From assembly GCA_965233865.1 (NCBI GenBank), contig OZ247587.1, forward strand, positions 128,001-192,000: a stretch of 64,000 bases of DNA, given 5' to 3'. Shown here piece after piece: positions 41,598 to 62,031 of the stretch. Under the pieces are notes generated by a model. That model did no database searches, was not told the origin of the DNA, and worked only from the letters and a program-made list of their open reading frames with translations. A program made the translations under genes and the position numbers. Origin of the DNA: Candidatus Neptunichlamydia sp. (GTDB taxonomy: Bacteria; Chlamydiota; Chlamydiia; Chlamydiales; Simkaniaceae). Every line of letters begins with the position of its first letter. Within the stretch, counting starts at the first letter, position 1.

Positions 41598-41688
41598 CAG
41601 TAAATTTGTTAAGCTTCCAGCATAGAGAATTGCCAAGAAGAGGTTTTAGCGCCTGAGTATTTTTCAAGAAAAGTTCCTTAAGTCCAGG

Positions 41689-42423
41689 TATAGCTAAAAT
41701 ATTTCGTTTTAGTTATACTTTTTTGAATGACGTATTCATTAGATTTTAGAAAAAAGGTACTGCTGATCCGAAGCACAGAAAATTTAAGTTTTGCTAAGAC
41801 AGCAAAACGTTTTGGTGTAAGTGTAAATAGCATATTTCTTCGGTCTAAGAGGCTAGAGGCAAAGCGCACTAAAAATAGACCTGCAATAAAGATTGAAAGA
41901 GATCGCTTGATGGAGGATATCAAAAAAATACCCTGATGCCTTCAACTATGAACGAGCATATCGTCTCAATGTAAGCCCTTCAGGTGTTCGTTGTGCCATA
42001 AAGCGGCTAAGAATTAGCTATAAAAAAAACACTTAACCATCCCAAGGCTTGCAAAAAAAAGAGATCTCTCTTCAGAGAAAAGATTGCAAGGTATGAATGC
42101 TTGGAACAAACCTTTTTACTCTTGCACTGTTTGATTGTAATATTAATACAGATGCCTTTAGCAGTTGGGCAGAGCAAAACTTGATGCCGAAACTTCCTTC
42201 TGAAAGCGTTTTAGTTATGGATAATTCATCGTTTCATAAAAGCAAATCTATGCAAGAAAAGGTCGAAGCTGCAGGCCACATCTTGGAATATTTTCCCCCA
42301 TATTTAAATCCTATTGAGCGTAAATGGGCACAAGCAAAATCTAAACGAAGAAAATATCAATGTGGAATTGATGAACTTTTTAAGGAATATTGCCTATAAC
42401 TAAATTATATCAACTTAGCTATA
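41689..42423 (+). mobile_element. IS630-family element, degenerate
   Basis: IRs TATAGCTAA / TTAGCTATA; HTH MTYSLDFRKKVL; DDE fragment VMDNSSFHK..NPIERKW; frameshifts and internal deletion. Confidence 0.88.
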
Positions 42424-42656
42424 TTTGACTTTTTTGGCATACTAAATGGGTCATTGCTTTTTTCAACTAATCCTAGAGAAAAAAGTGGAATTGCTCAAGT
42501 AGAGGTGAGAGCTTAAATGAACCAATACCTTGTCTTTTTCTTCCAAGAACGAGAAGCTTAACAAGCTCTAGAGTCATGAATTTTTCTATTGGAAATTCTT
42601 TCATTTTAATACCTATTATTGTGAACTAATATGTATATTATATCATTTATTTTTAA

Positions 42657-43797: not shown

Positions 43798-46064
43798 GTG
43801 AAGCAGGCGATTCCTTGCCCGAGCAAATTATGGAGAGTCCACACCCCGACGGTGATTCAAATGGAAAATGTCGAATGTGGAGCGGCGTGCCTTTCGATGC
43901 TTCTTTCCTATTACGGAAAACATGTTCCATTGGAAGATCTACGAACCGAGTGCGGTGTTTCGAGGGATGGAAGTAATGCGCTTAACCTACTAAATGCAGC
44001 AAAAAAGTTTGGCTTAGAGGGAAAGGGACATCGAGAGGGACTTCAAGAGCTTTATGAAACCGATAAACCTGCGATTCTTTTTTGGGATTATAATCATTTT
44101 GTTGTTCTTGAGGGATTTGGAAAAAAATGCGTTTACCTTAATGATCCTGCTTTTGGACCCCGAAAAGTAACCTATGAAGAGTTTGATGAAGCCTATACAG
44201 GAGTTGTTCTGCATTTTCAGAGGAGCTCTTCATTTGAAAAAGGAGGGAAGCAACCCAGTGTTTTTGAGGACATGAAACATCGTTTTCGTGGAGTTAAAAG
44301 GACTCTTCTCTATGTCCTAATCGCAGGAATCTGTCTTCTCATTCCCGGTCTAGGAGTTCCCGTTTTTACACGAATTTTTATTGATAACATCTTAGTGACG
44401 AATGTCCTCTCATGGAAAGGACAGTTTTTATTTGCGATCTTTTGTGCTATGACCCTTGCAGGAATTTTAACCTGGCTTCAGCAATATTTCTTAAATCGCC
44501 TGAACGCAAAAATGGCAATTCATTTCTCAAGTGATTTTTTATGGCATATCCTGCGTCTTCCTGTTTCATTTTATTATCAGAGGTTTCCTGCGGAAATAGC
44601 AAACCGCGTAGGGCAAAATAATCTTGTTGTCCAGATGATGACTGAGACTCTAGCAACTCCTACTATCCAGATGATTTTGGTCATTTTCTACGGAATTGTG
44701 ATGTTCATGTATGATTTTTCTGTGGCGCTTATTGGAGTTTTGGCAGGTCTAGGGAGTCTTGTCGTGATGCGTTTGGTTCAAAGGTCGAGGACGGATACTT
44801 ATGCTCGTCTCCAAAAAGAGCAGTCAATTGTCACTGCAAATTCAGTCGGGGTGATTCAACAAATAGAGACTATTAAGGCCACAGGAACAGAAAGTGATGC
44901 ATTTGCTGCTTTTGCCGGATTTGATACGAGAAAAATCAATTCACTTCAGGAAATCAGTCGAAAAGATGCCATCCTAACGACCTCACCCATATTATTTCAG
45001 GGGATTGCCCAAGCGGCTCTTTTAGGGATTGGGGGATGGCGGACCATGCAGGGGAGTTTAACAATTGGGACTTTGATGGCTCTGCAGATGCTTTTGATTA
45101 GCTTCATTACTCCGGTTGTTAATTTTGTAAACTTTGGACAGACGATTCAATTTCTCAAGGTAGAGCTTATTCGTCTCAATGATGTTTTAAAGAATCCCAT
45201 TGACCGTATCTACTCTAAAAAAATGACTGAAAAATCAGATAACCCTAAACTTGATGGCTATTTAGAATTTAAGAATATCACCTTCGGATATAGTCCATTA
45301 GCACCTCCTCTAACCCTAAACTTGATGGCTATTTAGAATTTAAGAATATCACCTTCGGATATAGTCCATTAGCACCTCCTCTAATTGAAAAACTCAATAT
45401 CCAAATTCGCCCAGGACAGCGAGTGGCTCTTGTCGGTCCCTCAGGATGTGGCAAATCGACAATTTCAAAACTTTCGACAGGGCTCATTGAGCCTTGGGAA
45501 GGTGAGATCCTCTATGATGGGAAACCCATTATGGAGCAGTCTCAAGAGATCATGCAATGCTCGCTCACAAGCGTTGATCAAGAAATCTTCCTCTTTAGTG
45601 GATCGATTCGAGATAATATTACGCTGTGGGATACATCTGTTCCAGATGATGTATTGATCAAAGCGGCGCAAGATGCCTGCATTCATAACGATATTTTAGA
45701 GCGTCCTGAAGGGTATGATACTGAGCTCATCGAAGGAGGGAAGAACCTTAGTGGTGGGCAGCGGCAAAGAATAGAGCTTGCCCGTGCGCTTCTTGTAAGT
45801 CCTTCTATTGTAATTATGGATGAAGCCACAAGTGCCCTTGACTCTAGTACCGAGAAGCTCGTCATGAACCATATTCGAAAACGAGGATGTTCAGCGATTA
45901 TGGTTGCTCATCGATTGAGTACTATCCAAGACTGCGATGAAATCATTGTTCTTGAGAGTGGAAAGGTAGTTGAAAGAGGAACGCATGAAGAACTAAAGAA
46001 ATTGGGTGGGATCTATAATCAACTCATTGAGAGTGAGACGGGGGATAATGGAAGCCTTGTTTAA
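43798..46064 (+). pseudogene. NHLP C39 peptidase/ABC transporter, frameshifted by a 71-bp tandem duplication
   Basis: QMENVECGAACL, HFVV and NDPA peptidase motifs; TM domain; NBD GPSGCGKS and LSGGQRQR lies in a different frame after the duplication. Confidence 0.9.
45240..45381 (+). repeat. Perfect 71-bp tandem duplication
   Basis: 45240-45310 equals 45311-45381, with TAA microhomology at the junctions. Confidence 0.95.
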
Positions 46065-48921
46065 AGAACATGGGGAGAAGGTTGAGGCTCCAGCGAATTT
46101 CCGACTCTCTCTCCAAAAAAAAGGAACGGTTTGGCTTCTAGAAAAAGGAGCCATGATTCTTTTTGCTGTGCAAAAAAAAGAGGGTCATGAGGGTCGAAGA
46201 ACCCTCCTTTCAACCGTTCAATCAGGGCACCTTCTCTTCGATATGGAAGGGCAGGAAAACATTTCTTTTGAGATTTTTGCCTTCAGTGAAGAGCCTATTG
46301 TGATTTGGGAAATGAAAATGGATATTTTTGAAGGGAATCTTAAAAACTCTCTGCGCAATCAAGAGGCCTTTTCTCCACTTTTAGAACATTACTTGAATCA
46401 ATTTGGTCATTTTGTGTTTTCTCCGATTGAGCTTCGTCCCAAACATTGGATTTTTGAAGGAGGAATTGGGGTTGAAAAAGGGGAGACATTTACGATTAGA
46501 ATCAGTGAGGTTCCAACTGAGAAGGAGCGGGTGATTTGGCTCACTCCAAAAGGAGGGGAATACAAGCTTCTTGGCCCTCATGAGGTAAAGTTTTCTCAAA
46601 AGAACTTTCCTATTCTCCCTCATCTCTACTTTCTATCTCTAGAAAAAGTAAAATTGCAGGCAAAAAGCACTCCTGAAATTATCAACTCTGAATGTTGGCT
46701 AGAGGGACTTACCCATTTTCATCACTTTATAGGAAACTATCTTGTTTACAAAAGGGCTTTTTTGGATCGAGAAGAATTCAAACGTTTTAAGGAGAAAGAG
46801 AAACTTCAGGAGGAGACTCTTCATGAAACGCTAACCGAGATGATAGGGGTTCTTAAAACTAGCAAAGATGAAGAGATTGTGACCAGTACGAATCCACTTA
46901 CTCAAGCTGCTGAAATTGTCTTTAAAAAACAGGGGATTAAATTTACCGCTCCCAAAAAATCTTTGAAAGGGGATCTCAAAAATAAAGTAGCGAAAATTGC
47001 AGAAGGTTCCGAAGCTCGGATGAGGGGAGTGCGATTAGGACCTCTTCTTGCCTTCTATGGAAAAGAGCGTCACGCCGTTGCCCTGTATTTAAATCGATGG
47101 GGGAAGTATGAGATGATTGATCCAGTAAGAGGAAAAATACGAACAATTACAGGGAGCATTGCTCAAAATATTTCCTTGGATGCCTACAGTTTTTACAAGG
47201 CAATTCCAGATAAGATTCATAGTGGAAAAGAGGCCCTTCTTTATTACTTTAAGGAAAACAAAATGGAGTTCATTAAGCTCCTAGGGTATGGCCTAATTGC
47301 AGCAATTTTCTCTCTCTTCCCTCCTATTGGAATCTCTTTTATTTTTAACAGCGCTATTCCTAATGCCAATGTTGGCTTGCTCATACAGATCACTCTAGGG
47401 TTGATTACAGCGGCAGCAAGTGCGGCACTTTTTATCTATTTCCGCTCTCTTATTTTGGGGCGCATCGATGGAAAGTTAAGTTCCAGTTTGCAACCGGCCA
47501 TTTGGGATCGACTCTTGAAGCTTCCCGCGAATTTCTTTAAGCGCTTTACAGCAGGAGATCTTCTGCAACGAGCTATGACCATAGAGCAAATGAGACCCCT
47601 TCTAAGTAGCAACATTTCTCAAGCTATTTTGACAGGAATCTTTGCAATTCTCTATTTGGTTACCATGGTTATCTATTCGCCAAGACTTACCGTAATCGGC
47701 GTTATTCTCCTTATTGCTGCACTTTCTCTTACGGCTTTTCTAACTCGCTGGAAAATTGAAGTGCAGAAGAAAGTCTACGAGATACAAGGGGAAATCAATG
47801 GTGCTTTAGTACAAATCTTATCAGGTGTTGCAAAACTGCGTGTTGCAGGAGCTGAAAACAATGCCTTTTCTTACTGGGCTAGGCAATTCTCAAAATCAAA
47901 ATCTCTTGAAATGTCAGCCCAAAACATTCAGAACATTATCACAACCTGTATGGCAGCTTTTCCCCATTTATCGATCATTCTGATTTTTAGAGCTGTGATG
48001 AGGATGGAAGAGACAGAATCTCTTTCAATCGGGAGCTTTTTAGCCTTTAATACAGCCTATATGACCCTTTCGATGGCTGTATTTTCGATGAGTAGTATTG
48101 TTATGCAGGCGGCTGCCATTGTTTCTCTTTGGAAGCGGTCCCATGTGATCATCTAAGAGCCACAAGAGCTCCTTATTAAAAAATCAAATCCAGAAAAGCT
48201 CACAGGAGATATTCGCCTTGATCATGTAACCTTTGGCTATGAAGAAGAAGCTCCTTCGATCCTAAATGATGTTTCTATTCGACTTGCACCAAGGGAAATG
48301 ATTGGAATTGTAGGCCCTTCTGGAAGTGGGAAGTCCACGCTGATTCGAATGATTCTTGGCTTTGAAACACCTCGATCTGGTGCCGTCTATTTTAATGGGA
48401 AAGATCTCTCTCACCTCAATCTAAGTGAAGTGAGAAAACAGATGGGTGTTGTTCTCCAAGAAGGCGGAATTATTGCTGGAACCCTCTATCAAAACATTGT
48501 TGCGGGAGGACAGTATACAGAAGAAGAAATTGACCGAGCGATTACACTAGCTAGTTTTAAAAAGGACCTTCAAAACTTCCCCATGGGGCTCCATACCGTT
48601 GTACCTATGAATGGGGAAACCCTCTCTGGAGGGCAGAAACAACGGCTCCTTATTACGCGCGCACTTCTTCCAAATCCCAAGATCCTTCTGCTCGATGAAG
48701 CAACAAGTGCGCTTGATAACAACTCTCAAGAAGAAATCACCCAAAATATCGATCAGCTTAATATTTCACGCATCGTTATTGCCCATCGCCTTAGCACCAT
48801 CAAGAATGCCGATAGGATCTATGTACTTGAAAAAGGAAAGGTGACACAAACTGGCTCTTTCAAGAGCCTAAGCAACGAGCTGGGGCTTTTCGCCGAGATG
48901 CTTAAACGTCAGAAACTTTAA
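46048..48921 (+). pseudogene. NHLP system second ABC transporter (permease/ATPase), internal nonsense codon
   Basis: GPLLAF and AIWDRLLKLP motifs; TAA at 48154-48156 is in frame with downstream NBD GPSGSGKS, LSGGQKQR and DEATSALD. Confidence 0.88.
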
Positions 48922-50628: not shown

Positions 50629-50646
50629 AAAGCCCTAGTGTTTAGA

Positions 50647-50922
50647 TAGTGTAGTCACGGGATTTCTACCCATAAAGCCAAACATCTGATCTGAACCGCA
50701 GCCAAGAAAGAGGATGTGTGCTTAGCATAGCGTGTAGCAATTCCTCTCCATTGCTTCAAATGTAAAAAAGCATTTTCTACAAGATGTCTCAATTTATAGA
50801 GATGCTTATCATAAGCTCTCTTGCTTTTCCTATTTTTTCTGGGAGGGATAACCGCCGGCCAAATGTAATTTCGTGTTGAGCCCCCTTTTGTTCGAGCCAT
50901 ATCTTGATTGCCACCTTGTGCA
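50647..50922 (-). mobile_element. Truncated, internally deleted copy of the IS5 element at 3087-3927
   Basis: Near-identical to about 3484-3550 joined to about 3718-3927, including the right IR. Confidence 0.9.
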
Positions 50923-50938
50923 AGAGATTTTCTCAGAG

Positions 50939-51298
50939 CTAACTCAAAGCCGTGTACTTTTTTTTAAGCCATTCCAGCTCCATTTTTAGCCTTCCAATTT
51001 GCTCAAATAACTCTCCTTTTTCCTGCTCCTCTTCCTTGGTAATCAAACGCTTATTGCTTTTCTCAAAAATTTAGGCTGCCGTGGCTTTAAAGTGTCTTTT
51101 CCACCCTCCAAGGACTAAAGGGTGAACTTCAAATTTTCCAGCAAGCTCTCCTGCTGTTTTCTCTCCTTTCAAAACTTCAAGCACCACCTTCAGCTTGAAT
51201 TCAGCGGAATATTTTTTTCTTGTTTTTGCCATTTCTGTTCTCTTTTTGCTCGGAGAAAACTAGCTTAGCAAGTGGCTCGAATTTCTGGGACCATTATA
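50939..51298 (-). mobile_element. IS3-family left end and orfA remnant
   Basis: ATG 51232: MAKTRKKYSAEFKLKVVLEVLKGEKT...stop...LFEQIGRLKMELEWLKKK; IR-like TATAATGGTCCCAGAAATTCGAGCCAC. Confidence 0.8.
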
Positions 51299-51319
51299 CC
51301 AGAAAACAGCCTGAATTAC

Positions 51320-51942
<623 letters not shown>

Positions 51943-52227: not shown

Positions 52228-52495
52228 CAAAGGGGGGTGACCCCTAAAAAGCATTCTTTTTTTATTGTTGATCAAGCTGATTTACGCACGAATGGAATTT
52301 CCAAATTACGTGTTATTCATCTCATGATACACTCTCAGCAAAACACATAAAAAAATTTAAAAAATGCAAGAATTCATGCCACGATTCAGTACAAAATGTG
52401 TTATAATAGACACAAGGAGAACAAGATGAGCATATCAATCACACCTAAAAACAGCACTACTATTTCAACACAGACAATGTCGATTGATGAATTGT
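52228..52495 (+). repeat. Upstream/promoter repeat, copy 1 (copy 2 at about 55377-55646)
   Basis: Near-identical GGGGGGTGACCCCTAAAAAGCATTC...TGTGTTATAATAGACACAAGGAGAACAAGATGAGCATATCAATC. Confidence 0.9.
52399..52407 (+). promoter_or_regulatory. Extended -10 promoter (TGTTATAAT); also at 55550-55558 and 61555-61563
   Basis: Same motif shortly upstream of the RBS and ATG of RING genes 1, 3 and 5. Confidence 0.65.
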
Positions 52496-52848
52496 TAGAT
52501 GAACGCTTAAAAGAACGACAATCTAAAGCAGAAAGGATGATAGAAGAACTGAGACCACTTTGCGAAGAACTGCCTCTAGATGCATTGGATCCTGTAAGCA
52601 TGGAGCCTTTTAACGGGAAGAACATACCAATTGTTTACAGGTGTGGACATGTTTTCAATAAGTCAACAGTAAAAAAAATGATAGATCTTAGTGATCCAGC
52701 AAGGCTAGGGGATCTTGATTGCCCGGTATGTAAGCTTGTCTGTGGAAGAGTTCAGCTCCTTGATTGCATACCTTTAGAAGGACTTGTTGATCACATGGAA
52801 AAAATAACAAAAGTATTCAAGGAAAACACAGAAAATGAGCCCACATAA
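52426..52848 (+). CDS. Degenerate RING/U-box protein, module 1
   Basis: EELRPLCEELP.DALDPV...RCGHVFNK...CPVCK; N-terminus MSISITPKNS. Confidence 0.85.
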   Translation: MSISITPKNSTTISTQTMSIDELLDERLKERQSKAERMIEELRPLCEELPLDALDPVSMEPFNGKNIPIVYRCGHVFNKSTVKKMIDLSDPARLGDLDCPVCKLVCGRVQLLDCIPLEGLVDHMEKITKVFKENTENEPT

Positions 52849-53090: not shown

Positions 53091-53169
53091 ACCCCAAGGA
53101 GAACAATATGTCAGCCATAGCAAGTATTCAGAACAACACTATTTACTTTGAACAGTTCGTCCGAGATCA
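52942..53169 (+). repeat. 228-bp identical direct repeat with 56821-57048
   Basis: Compared base by base; spans a partner 3' end, the RBS and the start of an MSAIAS-type RING gene. Confidence 0.92.
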
Positions 53170-53569
53170 ACTCAAAACTCAAGAATTCGAAGCACGAGCA
53201 GAATTAAAAGATCGGGAAGTTGATGAAAGGAATCTGAAAGAGAAGAATGTTTTGAATAAAAGGTTTATTGAGGAGCTAAGACCTTTATGTGAAGAATTAC
53301 CTCCTGACGCCTTGGATCCTGTGACTATGGAGCCACTCTCAAGAGAAAACATTCCCATAGTATATAGATGTGGCCATGTCTTTAACAAAGAAACAATTAA
53401 AAATATTATTATATCGAACAAGCTTTTAAAAGGGTCTGATCTTAATTGCCCTGTTTGCAGATTAGTATGTGGGAGAATCCAACTCATTGACTGCATACCA
53501 CTAGAAGGGCTTGTTGAGCACATGGAAAAAATAACAAAAATATTTAAGGAAAATACAGAAAATGAATAG
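53108..53569 (+). CDS. Degenerate RING/U-box protein, module 2
   Basis: LDPVTMEP...RCGHVFNK...CPVCR; N-terminus MSAIASIQNN. Confidence 0.85.
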   Translation: MSAIASIQNNTIYFEQFVRDQLKTQEFEARAELKDREVDERNLKEKNVLNKRFIEELRPLCEELPPDALDPVTMEPLSRENIPIVYRCGHVFNKETIKNIIISNKLLKGSDLNCPVCRLVCGRIQLIDCIPLEGLVEHMEKITKIFKENTENE

Positions 53570-55350: not shown

Positions 55351-55576
55351 AGGGACCCGGGACCTGGTGGTCGTCGCAAAGGGGGGTGACCCCTAAAAAG
55401 CATTCTTTTTTTATTGTTGATCAAGCTGATTTACGCACGAATGAAAAATTCAAAATACGTGTTATTCCTCTCATGATATACTCCCTGCATTTCTACATGA
55501 AAAGTTTTTTAAAAACACAAGAATTCATGCCACGATTCAGTGCAAAATGTGTTATAATAGACACAAGGAGAACAAG

Positions 55577-55984
55577 ATGAGCATATCAATCACACCAAAA
55601 AACAGCAATACCGTCGCAACACAAACAATGTCGATTGATGAATTGTTTGAAGAGAGATATAAAGAACGACAGACAAGAGATAGCAAGATTGTTGAAGAAC
55701 TAAGGCCTTTGTGCGAAGAACTACCTCCAGATGCTCTAGATCCTGTGACTATGGAGCCTTTTACACTAGAGAACATTCCATTAGTCTTCAAATGCGGGCA
55801 TGTATTTAATAAAGAGACAATTAAATCTCTAATCGCGAATAACCCTGAAAAAAATTCAGGAATATCATGTGCTGTCTGCAAAGAAAAAATTTTTAAAAAC
55901 CACATATCAGAATGCGTTCCTCTTGAGGGGTTAGTGGGACACAACAAAAAAATAAACAGAGTCTTTAAAAAATATGCCGAGTAA
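55577..55984 (+). CDS. Degenerate RING/U-box protein, module 3
   Basis: LDPVTMEP...KCGHVFNK...CAVCK; N-terminus MSISITPKNS. Confidence 0.85.
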   Translation: MSISITPKNSNTVATQTMSIDELFEERYKERQTRDSKIVEELRPLCEELPPDALDPVTMEPFTLENIPLVFKCGHVFNKETIKSLIANNPEKNSGISCAVCKEKIFKNHISECVPLEGLVGHNKKINRVFKKYAE

Positions 55985-56986: not shown

Positions 56987-57523
56987 ATGTCAGCCATAGC
57001 AAGTATTCAGAACAACACTATTTACTTTGAACAGTTCGTCCGAGATCAGCTTAAAACACAAGAATCCGAAATGCGAGCAGAATTAAAAGATCGAGAGATT
57101 GAAATACGCGAAATGAAAGCTCAAAAAACAATGAACGATAGGATAGTTGAAGAGCTTAGGCCTTTATGTGAAGAATTGCCTGAATGTGCTTTAGATCCAG
57201 TGACGTATGAACCAATTAAAACACCTCTAGTGATGAGATGCGGACATACGTTAAGCTCTAAAACAGCAGGAACTTTGGCCAATGCAAAAGGCTTAAAAAA
57301 ATACGATAAAATACCATGCCCTTTGTGTCGAACGGAAACAATAGGCGCATGTTTTATATACGAGCAGTCGTTTGAAGAAACAGTAGAACATCTTGAAAAA
57401 ATAACGAAAATATTTAAAAAAACGGTAAAAAATAATGAAGCACAACCGAAGAAGAAAACAGCAGCGCTTGAATCTCAGAACGAAAAAAAAGGGATCAAGA
57501 AGAGAAAATGTAGTTTACGTTGA
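56987..57523 (+). CDS. Degenerate RING/U-box protein, module 4
   Basis: LDPVTYEP...RCGHTLS...CPLCR; N-terminus MSAIASIQNN. Confidence 0.85.
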   Translation: MSAIASIQNNTIYFEQFVRDQLKTQESEMRAELKDREIEIREMKAQKTMNDRIVEELRPLCEELPECALDPVTYEPIKTPLVMRCGHTLSSKTAGTLANAKGLKKYDKIPCPLCRTETIGACFIYEQSFEETVEHLEKITKIFKKTVKNNEAQPKKKTAALESQNEKKGIKKRKCSLR

Positions 57524-58572
57524 TTCTCAAAAAAAGAAAAATGCTGGCTACGTAGATCCGGAATACGTCGAATCAACTCGTCAGCGATCTCTGCCTTTTC
57601 TTGATGGTGGTGCAGCGTCAAATGTGTTTCTGGAAGATATTGAATCTAGTTCAACAAGGGAAACTTCCATTGATTCTGTGAGGACATCAAACTCTCTTTC
57701 AGACGTATTGACAGGTAAATATGAATCTTTATTTGACTTCACTGATGACTCTGAAGATAAAGACGCGATTATGGAAGATGCAAGAATAGCATCTAAGGGA
57801 GCTCCAAGTTATTTTAAAGTTTTACTGGATGACATAGAAAAACATCAAAAATCAAAGCTACCATTCTCGCACAGTAATAGGTTTGGTTTCGGAGTTAAGC
57901 AAGGAGCAGATGGACAATTCGAGCAAAAAGACATGGTTACTGGATACGGAACGGAGCCCTTACATCATCTAGAGATATACGAACCTCCTGGAAAGAAGGG
58001 ACCATTTACTCAATCACAACTTAATAGCGGTGAACTTTTATTTCCTAGTGACGAGGAAGAATCAGAAGATTCCACAAGAATGCGTCATGATTATGAAGGA
58101 CGTACGTTCTATGGTAAACAACCAAGAACTGTAGATGACTTGCTTCATGAACACGGCCACCAAAGATCTTCAAGAGTCCATAAACAGAAGATCTATTCCA
58201 TTGCCAATGATTCATCCATCTGGAATTCCAGCATTATATTCAGACCTAGAAGAGGCCAGAAATATAGAAAATGACGAGAATGCAGCTAGGAGAGAATTTG
58301 GTAAACGTCCTCGTCTCGGTCATATTGGAATAAATTCAGGTCTTGGGGAGGAAAACTTCCAAGACACAGTTGAAAACTATGCAAATCTCCATCCAGGTCA
58401 TATGTTGCGTGGGAAAGGGTTTATTAAATCAATAATTGAGGACGATTACCCCCAATTTGATGATGATGGAGAACAAGTAAATGAATCACTTCGAGATATT
58501 CTTATTGGACAAGGGCGCTTTGCAAATAGACCAGAATTATTTAACACCTTCAATAGTCACTTTGGAACTTGA
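57435..58572 (+). pseudogene. Module 4 partner; NleD/M91-like zinc metalloprotease, frameshifted
   Basis: LLHEHGH in the first frame; after a shift near 58161 it continues KDLQ...LEEARN..NDENAARREFGKRPRLGH. Confidence 0.65.
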
Positions 58573-58815
58573 TATTTTTCGTAAACTTTAACTAAATTCA
58601 CATTAAAACCTTCCAAATCCCAACTAATTATACTTAAACACGCATATTCTCATTTAATCACGTTTTAAGCTGATTTATCTTCTCGCAATCCCAACACAAC
58701 TCTAAGTCTCCAACAGCGCAACACAGCGCAAATCTGAGCCTTGTTTTTTGGAGATCTCCCCAAAATTTCTCTTTGTGTTAATCTTTCACCCAAAACAAAA
58801 TAAAAGGCCCCTCTT

Positions 58816-59556
58816 ATGACAAATCTAGCAATACAAATGGTCTCAAGCCTTCAGAAAAACATTCCTAATATCGAAAAGTCTCTCTCTCATAAATTCAACG
58901 ATACGGATCTACTAACAAGAGCATTTATGGACTCTAGCTTTCCTTTGGTGGGGATGGTCAGCGACGACGGAGAAACCAATGAAGATTTCGTATGGCGTGG
59001 AAACTATCTTTTGCAGCTTGCTATCGCAGACTATATCGAAGCGAACCATCACTCTGCAGACAAGTCCATAAAAAACACCATGCTAACGAAGCATATTAGC
59101 AACGATGCTTGTGTTAAGTACATCGACAAACTTCAGGTTTTTAATCACTACCTATATCAATGCCCTCATGGCTTAATCAACCCAGATGCACAGATCGCTC
59201 CATTCAAAGGAAAATGTTTTAAGGCAATCCTAACTGCTGTATATCTCGACGCTGGGAAATCTCTAGAGCCAATACACAACATGTTTCTTGATAAATTCAA
59301 TATTGAGCTGGAGGATTCCTTAGAATTCGCTGAAAAGAACTGGAAAAGCCTCTTGAATGAGTTTTGCCAAAAAAATCGTATGGGACAACTAATCTTCACA
59401 CTCGCAGAACGAAGCGGCCCTGATCATGCTCCAATGTTCAAAGTAAAATTAACCCTCAATGACGATAACCTCTCTACAGGAGAAAGCACCTCAAAAAAGC
59501 AAGCCGAGCAAATTGCTGCAAAGACAGCTTACGAAAAGCTTGTTCCTAAACCGTGA
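58816..59556 (+). CDS. RNase III homolog with dsRBD, catalytic residues substituted
   Basis: IEKSLSHKFND.DLLTRAF, NEDFVWRGN and FKAILTAVYLD; dsRBD NWKSLLNE..GPDHAPMF..SKKQAEQIAA. Confidence 0.88.
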   Translation: MTNLAIQMVSSLQKNIPNIEKSLSHKFNDTDLLTRAFMDSSFPLVGMVSDDGETNEDFVWRGNYLLQLAIADYIEANHHSADKSIKNTMLTKHISNDACVKYIDKLQVFNHYLYQCPHGLINPDAQIAPFKGKCFKAILTAVYLDAGKSLEPIHNMFLDKFNIELEDSLEFAEKNWKSLLNEFCQKNRMGQLIFTLAERSGPDHAPMFKVKLTLNDDNLSTGESTSKKQAEQIAAKTAYEKLVPKP

Positions 59557-59599
59557 TTTATGGAAGTATCTTTCTTTTTTAAGAAGGAGAAGTGAGAGC

Positions 59600-60115
59600 T
59601 TGTCAGAGAAAACACAATCGCAACAAACAAGTCAGTTAATCAGCACCAAGCAAGCAGCGCAGATCATTGGCTGTTCTATAGATTTATTCAAAGGCTATCT
59701 TTCTAGAAGAGTTTTTCAACCAAGCAAGAAAGTAAGTGGCAAGAATTTCTACTGCGAAAAAACCATCCGAAATTTTGTCCCTCCGAGTAGAGTCAAGAAA
59801 AGCAAGCCTCTTTCTAATAAATCAAGCACGGTTGATAGTATTGACATCGTTGACATGCGCGACATCATCAAACGGTGGCAAACATCTCCTCAGGACAATG
59901 CTTCATGCGACGTGGAAATTGGCGTATATACCGAAAAAATTCAAAGATTAGAAATAGACATGCATGGCGTTGATAAAGAAACTAAGGAGTTCTTAAGCAT
60001 GAGAGCGCTCTTAGTAAGATATGTCTTTGCAAGAAGAAAGCTCTTAAATTATCTACAAAAAGCTCACTTTGGAAGGTACCTCAAGGCCATAAGGATGATT
60101 AATAGCGAAGTTTAA
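59600..60115 (+). CDS. HTH DNA-binding domain fused to a ribosomal protein S15-like domain
   Basis: LISTKQAAQIIGCS HTH; DNASCDVEIGVYTEKI...RRKLLNYLQK..GRY S15 pattern; TTG start behind AAGGAG. Confidence 0.75.
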   Translation: MSEKTQSQQTSQLISTKQAAQIIGCSIDLFKGYLSRRVFQPSKKVSGKNFYCEKTIRNFVPPSRVKKSKPLSNKSSTVDSIDIVDMRDIIKRWQTSPQDNASCDVEIGVYTEKIQRLEIDMHGVDKETKEFLSMRALLVRYVFARRKLLNYLQKAHFGRYLKAIRMINSEV

Positions 60116-60126
60116 AAGGATAAAGC

Positions 60127-60471
60127 ATGGATATATTCGTAAAAAACCTCCCCTTAAGCGTAACATCATCTCAACTCAAAGAACTCTTCAGCATATATGG
60201 AAAAGTATTGTCCGCAAAAGTCATCGTAGATCATGAAACGCAAGTATCCCGTGGCTTTGGATTTGTTACAATGCTGGTAGATTCCGAAGCAAAACTAGCA
60301 ATCAGAAGACTTGATAGTGCAAATCTTGAAGGCAATATTATTATAGCCAAAGAAGCTCGTCCTAAAGTTGCGAAATCTATGAACTTCAGTAGTAGAGATT
60401 CTGTACTGCCAAGAAGTTTCAAACGACCAAAAGCATTGTCAGATAGAGCGCAATTCAAAGATTATGATTAG
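60127..60471 (+). CDS. RRM RNA-binding protein
   Basis: RNP2 IFVKNL, RNP1 RGFGFVTM and EARPK motifs. Confidence 0.92.
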   Translation: MDIFVKNLPLSVTSSQLKELFSIYGKVLSAKVIVDHETQVSRGFGFVTMLVDSEAKLAIRRLDSANLEGNIIIAKEARPKVAKSMNFSSRDSVLPRSFKRPKALSDRAQFKDYD

Positions 60472-60514
60472 AACTTACAACTAAAAATTTACAGTGGAGT
60501 AACAGGGTAAAAAA

Positions 60515-60955
60515 GTGACTCAAGAGAGCACAGTCGCAGAAACGGCAAAAGAGAGAATTAAACGAAAGAAAAAGGAAAAAGCTAATGAAGCACCATCCAC
60601 AGCTGAAGAGGCTTCAATTATGGAGGAAACAGAAGTCCTAGAGATTTATCCCTACAGCAAAGTGAAATCAAAGTGGATAGCTCAAAGCACAGTAAAAATC
60701 AAGGTGCCGCATGTTGGGATAGAGCTTCGTAATATCGTCTATAGTATTTCCAAGGATCATAGAGTAAAAGTGCAGCCTCCCTTTAGATATTACAAATTTG
60801 CTGAAGAGCTTGATAAAGCTGATGCCTATGTTGAAAGCATTAAATTCTTGAATAGACCAACCTGGAAAGAAGCTGTTAAAAAGATCAAAAAAGAAGCCCT
60901 AGATCATCATAGAAATGAGCTTCCTGAGATAGAAAATTCTTCAGAGAGTAAATAG
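60515..60955 (+). CDS. Hypothetical protein, possibly SpoVG-like nucleic-acid-binding fold
   Basis: IAQSTVKI...IELRNI...KVQPP...YVESIKF followed by a C-terminal helix. Confidence 0.5.
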   Translation: MTQESTVAETAKERIKRKKKEKANEAPSTAEEASIMEETEVLEIYPYSKVKSKWIAQSTVKIKVPHVGIELRNIVYSISKDHRVKVQPPFRYYKFAEELDKADAYVESIKFLNRPTWKEAVKKIKKEALDHHRNELPEIENSSESK

Positions 60956-60977
60956 CAAAAGCTGATTGCTATTTTTT
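60951..60977 (+). terminator. Intrinsic terminator closing the 58816-60955 operon
   Basis: Stem AATAGCAA / TTGCTATT followed by a T-run. Confidence 0.6.
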
Positions 60978-61079
60978 GGGCATTCGTACAGAAATAAATC
61001 CTTCTGATCATCGAATCTTAGCTCTAAAGATTCCTGAAGTTTTTGTAGCATTTCATTATCAGTTAGCATGATAGATGTC

Positions 61080-61394
61080 TTAGTTCTCTTTGGGTTCTTC
61101 GTCTTTATTTTCCTCAAAGTGAAATACCTTCTTTGGGACTAGATACCCTTCAATCGTAGAGAGTCTTTGGCTTGTTTCATGTTTAAAGTCATCGATTCTT
61201 TGATTGATGTTTTTAACTTCAACTTCCATGGCAGTTAAACGGTTTTCTATGCCATTAAAGCGTGTGTTATTTTCTTTTTGATGAGACTCCATTTTTGTAT
61301 CAGTGTCTTTCTTATTTGCGTCTATTTTGTTCATCATGTAGATAAACCCACCAATGAAAACTCCTATAACAGTAAGTGCTTGCGTCCAGTCCAT
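61080..61394 (-). CDS. Small membrane-anchored coiled-coil protein
   Basis: MDWTQALTVIGVFIGGFIYMM TM segment followed by heptad repeats. Confidence 0.65.
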   Translation of the reverse strand: MDWTQALTVIGVFIGGFIYMMNKIDANKKDTDTKMESHQKENNTRFNGIENRLTAMEVEVKNINQRIDDFKHETSQRLSTIEGYLVPKKVFHFEENKDEEPKEN

Positions 61395-61584
61395 GATTAT
61401 CATCCATTGTTTTCGTCTAATTCTCATTTTATCCCTTTGTAGCTTTACCAGCAAATATAAATCCAGTAAACAGCAAGCGTTGAATTTTTATGAAACGAAG
61501 GTCTAAAATATTTTTGATTTTGAACGATTTCATTCAATGATTCCGTGCAGAGTATGTTATAATAAAGGTAAGAGGATAAACAAG

Positions 61585-62031
61585 ATGACAGCCATATTAA
61601 GCATTCAGAATAACACCATTTACTTTGAAAAATTTGTCAGACAGCAGCTCAAAACGCAAGAAAGCGAAGCACGAGCAGATCTAAAAGGTCGCGAAGCTGA
61701 AATGCGCGAAGTAAAAGCTCAAAAGACAATGAACGACAGGATAGTAGAAGAACTCAGGCCCTTATGCGAGGGACTTTACTCTTCATCTTTAGACCCAGTT
61801 TCATATGAACCGATACTAGATCCTTTTATATTTATATGCGGTCATACATTCAATAGAAATACAATTCTTGGGATTATACACCACCAAAATTTAGACCTGC
61901 ATAGGGGAAATATCAAATGTCCATCTTGTAGGACAATTTGTGAAATACAGAAATTATACCCATCAATTCCATTGGAAGAAATGTCAGAGAAAACAAAGAA
62001 AATTCATCAACTTTTGAATAAAACAGAGTAA
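61585..62031 (+). CDS. Degenerate RING/U-box protein, module 5
   Basis: LDPVSYEP...ICGHTFNR...CPSCR; N-terminus MTAILSIQNN. Confidence 0.85.
   Translation: MTAILSIQNNTIYFEKFVRQQLKTQESEARADLKGREAEMREVKAQKTMNDRIVEELRPLCEGLYSSSLDPVSYEPILDPFIFICGHTFNRNTILGIIHHQNLDLHRGNIKCPSCRTICEIQKLYPSIPLEEMSEKTKKIHQLLNKTE

Follow-up and report, generated by a model that had tools for sequence, protein, structure and literature searches.

What use does a chlamydial genome have for a domain of ribosomal protein uS15 that is attached to a DNA-binding domain? The question is raised by the gene at 59600..60115 (+ strand) of a 64,000-nucleotide stretch of Candidatus Neptunichlamydia sp. (assembly GCA_965233865.1, contig OZ247587.1, positions 128,001 to 192,000; the whole stretch is referred to here as the window). 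In a preliminary description of this DNA, the gene product was proposed to join an excisionase/MerR-like helix-turn-helix (HTH) to an S15-like domain, and to represent a repurposed ribosomal protein that may link DNA binding to RNA recognition or ribosome assembly. The analysis presented here indicates that the 171-amino-acid (aa) protein, designated HTH-S15, is very likely a non-ribosomal paralog of uS15 fused to an excisionase-type HTH.

Domain architecture of HTH-S15

Three segments were distinguished in the deduced protein, i.e. a winged HTH of the excisionase/MerR (HTH_17) type (59636..59770, + strand; residues 13-57), a basic, disordered linker (59771..59845, + strand; residues 58-82) and an S15-like four-helix domain (59846..60109, + strand; residues 83-170). 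The S15-like part was matched by Pfam profile PF00312 (Ribosomal_S15) across residues 88-165 (E 6.7e-10, 39.4 bits vs a gathering score of 31), a profile that was matched by 19/19 family members, and a profile built from these 19 proteins detected solved S15 chains at E 1.3e-22. In an AlphaFold2 model based on the same 19 family members (mean pLDDT 86), this part was represented by helices at residues 83-93, 103-122, 129-155 and 157-170.

Comparison of the model with the PDB using Foldseek listed matches that were almost all uS15 chains, of both bacterial and organellar origin, which superposed with TM scores of 0.86-0.91 and a root-mean-square deviation (rmsd) of 1.3-2.3 over ~88 residues. 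For the bacterial uS15 chains, the target-normalised TM scores were mostly 0.81-0.91, with an rmsd of 1.3-2.6 over ~88 columns; the Foldseek E-values reached only ~1e-3 because half of the query was unmatched. When the model was compared with 48,161 representative chains using VIA-align, uS15 ranked first (Z 12.8, rmsd 1.4 over 84 residues). The C-terminal ~90 residues were thus shown to match S15 by profile as well as by structure.

The N-terminal domain was modelled with high confidence (block pLDDT 88-94) as a beta-alpha-alpha-beta-beta-alpha arrangement, consisting of strands at residues 13-15, 43-45 and 48-52 and helices at residues 16-23, 27-35 and 53-57. Among the 19 family members, the equivalent domain was recognised as HTH_17 in 16 (best E 2.7e-11), as MerR_1 in nine and by the MerR HTH profile in four. 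The one N-terminal match listed by VIA-align was the excisionase RdfS (8dgl_A), which aligned with model residues 2-60 at Z 6.5 and an rmsd of 3.2 over 58 of 67 residues, a Z value that is middling on the scale of this program. The linker was modelled poorly (pLDDT <50 at residues 68-78) and its charge ranges from 0 to +7 across the family. Prediction of a homodimer from two copies of the whole protein returned a score of 0.00, which counts neither for nor against a dimer. Taken together, the Pfam match, the HTH_17 matches of the relatives, the AlphaFold2 model and the uS15 structure matches bear out the fusion that the preliminary description had claimed, and all of the motifs it quoted (ISTKQAAQIIGCS, KNFY, IIKRW, DNASCDVEIGVYTEKIQRL, RRKLLNYLQK and RY) are present in the translation.

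The stop-free frame at 59600-60115 (+ strand; TAA stop included) opens with a TTG codon, 10 nucleotides (nt) upstream of which a Shine-Dalgarno-like AAGGAG is located (59584..59589, + strand; a consensus match read from the sequence). Two relatives, of 171 and 169 aa, share this start point, one of them also with TTG. A longer frame with an ATG start at 59459 overlaps the upstream gene at its 3' end; the gene caller probably extended the frame too far here, and this start is probably not used, whereas a database entry of 210 aa (P0002) starts at such an upstream ATG. Compared with its 70% identical relative in genome G034, the gene exhibited a dN of 0.18 and a dS of 1.45, with values of 0.17 and 1.10 for the HTH part and 0.19 and 2.3 (the latter saturated) for the S15 part. 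As evidenced by a dN/dS ratio of ~0.13 at this dS, the gene is maintained by purifying selection, with both domains being constrained.

HTH-S15 is a paralog beside a genuine rpsO

The genome from which the window derives (G000) consists of a single contig (C1) of 1,830,388 bases and contains five PF00312 matches. One of these is the canonical rpsO (G000 C1 1715318-1715587), which encodes an 89-aa protein scoring 113.4 bits and is located directly upstream of the polynucleotide phosphorylase (PNPase) gene pnp, so that a normal rpsO, for which the preliminary description had advised a search, is present elsewhere. The remaining four matches, at 37-41 bits, are copies of the paralog. The second copy, at 663 kb, encodes a protein identical to that of the window, while the third, at 1,223 kb (G000 C1 1222862-1223548), is 95% identical, with its last 6 residues swapped for an unrelated 29-residue tail. 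The fourth copy, at 1,268 kb (G000 C1 1268406-1268879), is 5'-truncated and lacks the HTH. Both the third and the fourth copy abut a homolog of a secreted-looking protein of 541-550 aa, which in genome G034 comes after HTH-S15.

The window gene is placed between an RNase III paralog and a gene for an RRM protein, and the rpsO-pnp arrangement is not encountered there. Against the S15 equivalog profile of NCBIfam (TIGR00952), the window protein scored 45.8 bits and a relative (P0004) 45.4 bits, both below the cut-off of 63.65. Since HTH-S15 represents a true fusion and a paralog that exists beside a normal rpsO, its description as a repurposed ribosomal protein is considered fair.

Altered rRNA-reading residues and a conserved arginine-rich face

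To define how the S15-like domain differs from S15 proper, 18 chlamydial rpsO products were aligned with the 19 family members, using the numbering of the 89-aa rpsO product. According to a previous report, His42, Asp49 and Ser52 of Escherichia coli S15 recognise a U-G/C-G motif of rRNA (PMC8470358). These three positions are occupied by Asp, Glu and Met, respectively, in the window protein. His42 is present in all 18 chlamydial rpsO products and in 1/19 family members, which mostly carry Asp, Glu or Lys instead; Asp49 (18/18 in rpsO) is retained in 9/19 and replaced by Glu in a further five; and Ser52 (15/18 in rpsO) is found in 0/19. Thr22 and Gly23, each present in 18/18 rpsO products, occur in 7/19 and 6/19 family members, respectively. 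Furthermore, the loop between alpha2 and alpha3 is 4 residues longer in the family, at the position of the helix-22 contact. By contrast with the triad, Tyr69 (18/18 in rpsO) is represented by 13 Tyr and 5 Phe among the 19 family members, and Arg77 is found in 18/18 rpsO products and in 19/19 family members.

These substitutions suggest that one of the two rRNA-reading sites has been lost, and binding to 16S helix 22 in the usual manner is therefore unlikely. No support was found for the link to ribosome assembly offered by the preliminary description, His42 and Ser52 being lost and the score lying below the TIGR00952 cut-off, and HTH-S15 is probably not a working part of the ribosome.

Fifteen residues, all located in the S15 half, are invariant or at least 90% conserved within the family, i.e. 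W93, D99, S102, D104, I107, G108, I114, R135, L138, R145, R146, L149, L152, R159 and Y160. They include four arginines (R135, R145/R146 and R159), and the isoelectric point of the S15 domain is 9.0-10.1 in 18/19 family members vs 9.8 for the rpsO product. R159 of the window protein aligns with Arg77 of S15, a residue reported to contact the tracrRNA in the Cas12k complex, where S15 mimics its binding of rRNA (PMC9798831); S15 chains from Cas12k complexes occur among the Foldseek matches. This pattern of conservation points to an arginine-rich, backbone-binding face that appears to be still constrained. The S15-like domain is therefore likely to have retained nucleic acid binding, and it is plausible that it recognises RNA.

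Distribution of the HTH-S15 family

An exhaustive phmmer search of 1.84 billion representatives clustered at 50% identity returned 57 matches at E up to 1e-3, among which at least 18 clusters combine both domains in proteins of 158-223 aa, meaning that the HTH-plus-S15 architecture recurs beyond the window. One relative (P0006) carries two HTH copies ahead of the S15 domain and another match (P0039) comprises 5 HTH copies without S15, while S15-like chains of 82-138 aa lacking an HTH were also detected, some of which may be cut gene calls. Among 5.8 billion proteins searched by word index, 4 relatives were identified out of 39 candidates. One relative, encoded on a 1.97-Mb contig, is labelled "30S ribosomal protein S15" in the public database, with precomputed matches to PF13411 and PF00312. 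No match to the window protein was found in PHROG.

Among 400 scored genomes of the phylum, full-length matches were confined to the window's genome, G034 and G041, which belong to one genus, so that 3/15 sampled genomes of this genus carry the paralog. The outcome did not change when the query was the divergent G041 protein instead of the window protein (G005 lay outside the scored set); all other matches cover the S15 part only and represent the rpsO of the genomes concerned.

Related loci were searched for with an 8-row sub-alignment of the family. In a scan of one genome per species across bacteria and archaea, 1 locus was confirmed out of 37 candidate stretches, and 19 loci out of 166 candidates were obtained from JGI metagenomes, with 11/19 spanning both domains. 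Several of the metagenome contigs bear other genes that are 65-76% identical to genes of G000, which suggests that they derive from related chlamydiae. The locus from the species scan (L026) is situated on a contig of a metagenome-assembled genome labelled Pseudobdellovibrionaceae and differs little from metagenome locus L036, the displayed HTH-S15 translations of the two being identical; its neighbours include a PDDEXK_2 nuclease weakly similar to G000 genes and, as judged by eye, a group II intron reverse transcriptase. The label of this bin may misstate the true source of the contig.

A maximum-likelihood tree of S15 parts (46 rows, 93 columns) divided the family into two subgroups, and the canonical S15s (chlamydial and three others) grouped together, set apart from the family by a branch with 95/93 support. 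An origin from chlamydial rpsO had been considered on account of shared DVQI and STDT.RY motifs; as the tree places the chlamydial sequences with the other canonical S15s, away from the family, a donor was not singled out. Literature searches, the scope of which excluded supplements, returned no description of an HTH-S15 fusion. HTH-S15 is thus a combination of two known domains that is not described in the literature searched and that forms a small, lineage-restricted family, with the architecture itself already present in public sequence.

HTH-S15 is encoded with RNA-binding proteins

Upstream of HTH-S15 and in the same orientation lies the gene for an RNase III paralog (58816..59556, + strand), whose product retains an intact dsRNA-binding domain (dsrm, 70.6 bits) and reached 21.4 bits against Ribonucleas_3_3, i.e. 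below the cut-off of 35. Relative to the genuine rnc product of the genome, its acidic catalytic residues are replaced (NERLEFLGD by NEDFVWRGN and ADLFEAIIG by GKCFKAILT), as is likewise the case in two metagenome homologs, and the protein is predicted from these replacements to be catalytically dead. Phage sequences resembling the paralog occurred in 5 records and were generic RNase III homologs only, at 23-31% identity; the paralog also matched phrog_28637, a group of unknown function. Downstream and again co-oriented, a 114-aa RNA-binding protein is encoded at 60127..60471 (+ strand; RRM_1, 67.7 bits), followed in the same string of genes by a conserved 146-aa protein of unknown fold (60515..60955, + strand), which has 9 relatives and a homolog of which adjoins HTH-S15 in locus L035. 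This protein had no match in Pfam, PHROG or PADLOC, and its model (pLDDT 64.5) had no clear fold match. The idea that it resembles SpoVG, suggested by an Atlas lead of 0.82 (below the reliable range), was discarded, as the best Foldseek E-value for this low-confidence model was 0.025 and no SpoVG was retrieved.

A comparable organisation was observed in the metagenomes. In 9/11 loci that cover both domains, an open reading frame (ORF) of 72-107 aa is located directly 3' of HTH-S15; these ORFs were called RRM-like on the basis of their shared N-terminal sequence, and two of them, both from L034, were tested by profile (RRM_1, 34.3 and 33.3 bits). HTH-S15 and the RRM-like ORF overlap by 4 nt in most of the nine loci, the far larger overlaps listed for L029 and L030 being due to a first start codon of the ORF that lies well upstream. 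A homolog of the dead RNase III was reached in five metagenome loci (57-71% identity), in the order HTH-S15, RRM, RRM, other genes, dead RNase III. In G034, both HTH-S15 copies are preceded by the RNase III paralog; at one of them, this paralog is split.

Genes around the metagenome operons encode ParB-like/MT-A70 and N6/N4 DNA methylases, a family-A DNA polymerase, an XRE repressor and PDDEXK_2 nucleases, in addition to ParA, a group II intron reverse transcriptase and fragments of insertion sequences (IS), which were identified by inspection or by blast against the genome and not by profile. With regard to PADLOC defence systems, the module proteins gave no match except for two rows (E 0.003-0.004) from one ORF of L034. 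Predicted promoters and terminators (10 and 4 sites vs 12.7 and 3.8 expected, respectively) gave no signal.

The leader of the operon, of ~170 nt, exhibited 81-87% nucleotide identity in some locus pairs, vs 56-62% amino acid identity of the protein; equivalents were found at L029 149-333, L031 1838-2022, L032 3731-3915 and L037 2675-2859, and also in L033, L034 and L035. A reverse-strand frame through this leader specifies a conserved hydrophobic peptide resembling Y.TC.GLSIGEGYI. In the window, a 9-nt direct repeat, ACAGCGCAA, occurs in two copies 10 nt apart at 58713-58731, and a 22-nt palindrome, TTTTTTGGAGATCTCCCCAAAA, is present at 58744-58765, at a distance of 50-100 nt on the upstream side of the RNase III-like gene. 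They are possible operator sites; the direct-repeat pair is no more than expected by chance (~0.6 in the stretch, by a rough estimate). Further upstream of the module, two overlapping putative ORFs at 57435-58274 and 58135-58572 (279 and 145 aa) have no family matches, the first of which specifies a highly charged, disordered-looking product.

The module resides in repeat islands

The whole module is contained in a 4.1-kb segment (57692..61776) that is duplicated at G000 C1 665650-661552 with 98.2% identity (blastn), and the region from 50 to 64 kb of the window was shown to be a mosaic of repeats common to 661-670 kb and 1,215-1,290 kb of the genome. A small serine recombinase (resolvase; Resolvase 117.3 bits, with HTH_7) is encoded 8 kb upstream of HTH-S15 (51388..51942, + strand). 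Three of the six resolvase matches in the genome are located within 6-11 kb of three of the four paralog copies, although these proximities are not independent since the islands are duplicates; a resolvase is also located near a G034 copy. The presence of multiple copies in repeat islands, together with the occurrence in 3/15 genomes of the genus, points to an accessory role of the mobile-element type.

A distinct context was observed for the divergent subgroup in G041, where a T4 coupling protein (TrwB), a RecD2-type helicase, HTH-S15, a 78-aa HTH_17 protein and a PDDEXK_2 protein are encoded in this order. The arrangement occurs twice, in L046 (G041 C1 27500-40500) and in L049 (G041 C3, an 8.5-kb contig of 8536 bases), and one of the copies additionally includes a MobA/MobL relaxase-helicase and TraD. 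This gene set is a conjugative DNA-transfer module. No tyrosine recombinase partner was seen in the G041 and metagenome loci examined.

Five paralogous small ORFs flank the module of the window (52396-52848, 53108-53569, 55547-55984, 56987-57523 and 61537-62031). They are RING/U-box-like (zf-RING_UBOX, zf-Nse; mostly below the Pfam cut-offs), and the ends of the 4.1-kb duplication are marked by similarity among these ORFs. Their appearance is that of host-directed, E3-ligase-like effectors whose family has expanded. Three short repeat families (41681-42424, 50631-50856 and 50922-51299), which recur across the genome at 90-98% identity (~25, 15 and 8 blastn matches), probably represent IS ends or miniature elements; an ORF of L031 matches translated sequence of the genome with 69-71% identity at positions overlapping with several first-family copies. 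At 43798-48921, an HlyD-like gene is followed by two ABC exporter units, each apparently divided between separate ORFs, the first comprising a peptidase C39 plus membrane domain (512 aa) and an ATPase (213 aa), and the second a 716-aa membrane protein and an ATPase (207 aa). Either the genes are split, or these units are bacteriocin-type exporters with frameshifts.

Proposed role of HTH-S15 and alternative explanations

We propose, with moderate confidence, that HTH-S15 serves chlamydial mobile or island DNA as an accessory factor that binds nucleic acids. Winged-HTH recombination directionality factors (RDFs) such as RdfS are reported to bind element DNA as oligomers, to stimulate excision and to regulate promoters (PMC11963761), and the HTH of HTH-S15 would, by analogy with such excisionases and regulators, bind the DNA of the element. 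The S15 module would bind the backbone of a structured RNA or of an RNA-DNA hybrid with altered specificity and, in the subgroup represented by the window, may act jointly with the co-operonic RRM proteins and the dead RNase III/dsRBD protein. Together, these proteins could regulate an RNA-protein complex on the element or bring it together, with HTH-S15 linking the RNA or ribonucleoprotein (RNP) to element DNA. In its simplest version, such a mechanism would amount to autoregulation of an operon of RNA binders, and in a bolder version the S15-based clamp would take part in a transaction of the element, as in type V-K transposons. The chances that HTH-S15 employs a combined DNA-plus-RNA mechanism of any such kind are close to even. 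A considerably more specific proposal, according to which an island-encoded S15 clamp for RNA or hybrids, tethered to DNA by the HTH, nucleates an RNP with the RRM proteins and a dimer of the dead RNase III/dsRBD protein, thereby making the element depend on a structured RNA for its excision, transfer, replication or expression, is decidedly speculative and rather improbable.

Several observations weigh against this role. The N-terminal domain of the window protein itself matched no HTH family in Pfam at E up to 1, PF12728 included. Searches of 50,697 phage records (tblastn) and 72,556 plasmid records returned no match to HTH-S15 and 0/21 candidate stretches were confirmed in IMG/VR, and the assignment to a mobile element is for this reason drawn from neighbouring genes only. 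The nearest tyrosine integrase gene (PF00589) is 14 kb away, none being adjacent, and the coupling-protein fragments and the relaxase of G000 are far from all four paralog copies. As the two gene contexts differ, i.e. an operon of RNA binders vs conjugation genes, one shared mechanism is not assured. The loss of His42 and Ser52 could moreover reflect an RNA binding that has been lost altogether rather than retargeted. Rfam reported nothing at gathering score in the window, with only a chance-level snoRNA row (E 2.5) between 57000 and 62500. Neither strand of the ~170-200-nt operon leader from seven metagenome loci gave a persuasive fold in RNAalifold (consensus energies of -1.4 and -6.2 kcal/mol; 3 and 0 compensatory pairs). 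The conserved leader may simply be a promoter, an operator or a small reverse-strand ORF.

The alternative that survives best dispenses with RNA entirely. HTH-S15 would in that case be a pure DNA-binding excisionase or transcription factor, in which the S15 bundle serves as a scaffold or oligomerisation module, similar to the extra helix that allows RdfS to polymerise on DNA. An HTH of the RDF type, the degraded rRNA-reading triad and the stand-alone HTH_17 protein next door in the G041 conjugative module are in line with this view, as are the relative with two HTH copies and the 5-HTH protein without S15; RDFs are, moreover, described in the study cited above as requiring oligomerisation contacts (PMC11963761). 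However, the invariant residues are not restricted to the core of the bundle, but include the four surface-type arginines that bind the RNA backbone in S15, and the domain has stayed basic. In addition, the gene of the window subgroup is translationally coupled to those for RRM and dsRBD proteins, and S15-like forms without an HTH occur, even if some of these are perhaps cut gene calls. A purely DNA-directed function is therefore regarded as possible but unlikely.

A second alternative holds that HTH-S15 is a secreted effector acting on host nucleic acids or organelle ribosomes, similar to the eukaryote-like proteins encoded nearby. The module sits in the array of RING/U-box-like ORFs, which specify proteins without a bacterial substrate system, its partners carry RRM and dsRBD domains, and the 541-550-aa protein encoded next to HTH-S15 in G034 has a signal-peptide-like N-terminus, as assessed by eye. 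Against this, HTH_17 is typical of bacteria and mobile elements, and the neighbours of the other loci are not effectors but ParA, methylases, an XRE repressor, a T4 coupling protein and a relaxase, which makes a function in the host very unlikely.

Thirdly, HTH-S15 could be an alternative ribosomal protein that replaces uS15 in some 30S subunits, so that specialised or element-hijacked ribosomes would arise, in which the HTH extends on the solvent side. The complete S15 fold and the retention of Tyr69 (or Phe) and Arg77 would permit this, and the long N-terminal extensions of mitochondrial uS15 proteins, which are among the structural matches, imply that an extension alone is no bar to incorporation into the ribosome; S15 is also one of the ribosomal proteins that viruses reportedly encode (bioRxiv 10.1101/174177). 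Yet the residues His42, Ser52, Thr22 and Gly23 have been lost in most or all of the family, the 4-residue insertion falls at the helix-22 contact and the equivalog score is below cut-off, while a normal rpsO-pnp locus is present, the paralog is limited to 3/15 genomes of the genus and the canonical S15s are separate in the tree. Incorporation into ribosomes is consequently judged highly improbable. Finally, the notion that the copies are decaying duplicates without function, for which the 5'-truncation of one of the four copies, the replaced C-terminal tail of another and the split RNase III-like neighbour of one G034 copy could be cited, can practically be dismissed given the dN/dS of ~0.13 across both domains at a dS of 1.45, the two identical and intact copies, and the at least 18 diverged full-length clusters that keep the 15 invariant or near-invariant residues.

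Comparison with known systems

To our knowledge, few ribosomal proteins have taken on tasks outside the ribosome, most of them chance finds, S15 in type V-K CRISPR transposons being one example. With uS15 itself (rpsO; PF00312, TIGR00952), HTH-S15 shares the four-helix fold, the motifs D..S.DV.I, RR.LL.YL and RY, and a basic charge. It differs in possessing an additional 82 residues of HTH and linker, in the loss of His42 and Ser52 and in an alpha2-alpha3 loop extended by 4 residues, as well as in a score below the equivalog cut-off and in being multi-copy, island-borne and remote from pnp. RDFs are single domains of ~60-90 aa that are paired with tyrosine integrases. The winged-HTH excisionases and RDFs (HTH_17; e.g. 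RdfS of ICEMlSymR7A, PDB 8dgl) resemble HTH-S15 in their N-terminal winged helix, as reflected by the HTH_17 matches of 16/19 members, and in the location of the G041 HTH-S15 within a conjugative element, whereas HTH-S15, a predicted DNA binder, carries an entire S15 domain and lacks an adjacent integrase. Similarity to MerR-family regulators is apparent from MerR_1 and MerR HTH matches (9/19 and 4/19 members, respectively) and from the relative tagged PF13411, but HTH-S15 has neither the long coiled-coil dimerisation helix nor an effector-binding domain of these proteins, its C-terminal half being S15.

Virus-encoded ribosomal proteins provide another precedent for accessory DNA that carries a ribosomal-protein homolog, with S15 among those listed by Mizuno et al. 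(bioRxiv 10.1101/174177). These viral proteins are near-canonical and presumed to enter ribosomes, whereas HTH-S15 is fused, diverged at the rRNA contact and absent from the phage and viral collections searched.

A further parallel is offered by type V-K (Cas12k) transposons, in which, as described previously (PMC9798831), a mobile element employs the S15 fold outside the ribosome, where it grips a structured RNA together with an RNA-DNA heteroduplex; Arg77, which is used there, is invariant in the HTH-S15 family. In that system, however, the unmodified S15 of the host is borrowed, while HTH-S15 is a diverged, island-encoded copy tethered to an HTH. Cas12k, TniQ and TnsC were not seen in the ORFs scanned around HTH-S15, although no search was aimed at them.

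HTH-S15 may thus represent a case in which an accessory element encodes an S15-based nucleic-acid adaptor, i.e. a diverged S15 that has been wired to a DNA-binding domain, selected, multiplied and linked to RNA binders and conjugation genes. Since a relative is labelled "30S ribosomal protein S15", marker-gene counts and the annotation of genomes that carry such genes can be misled. If HTH-S15 does act as an RNP clamp, it would be a self-encoded counterpart of the borrowing of host S15 by type V-K transposons.

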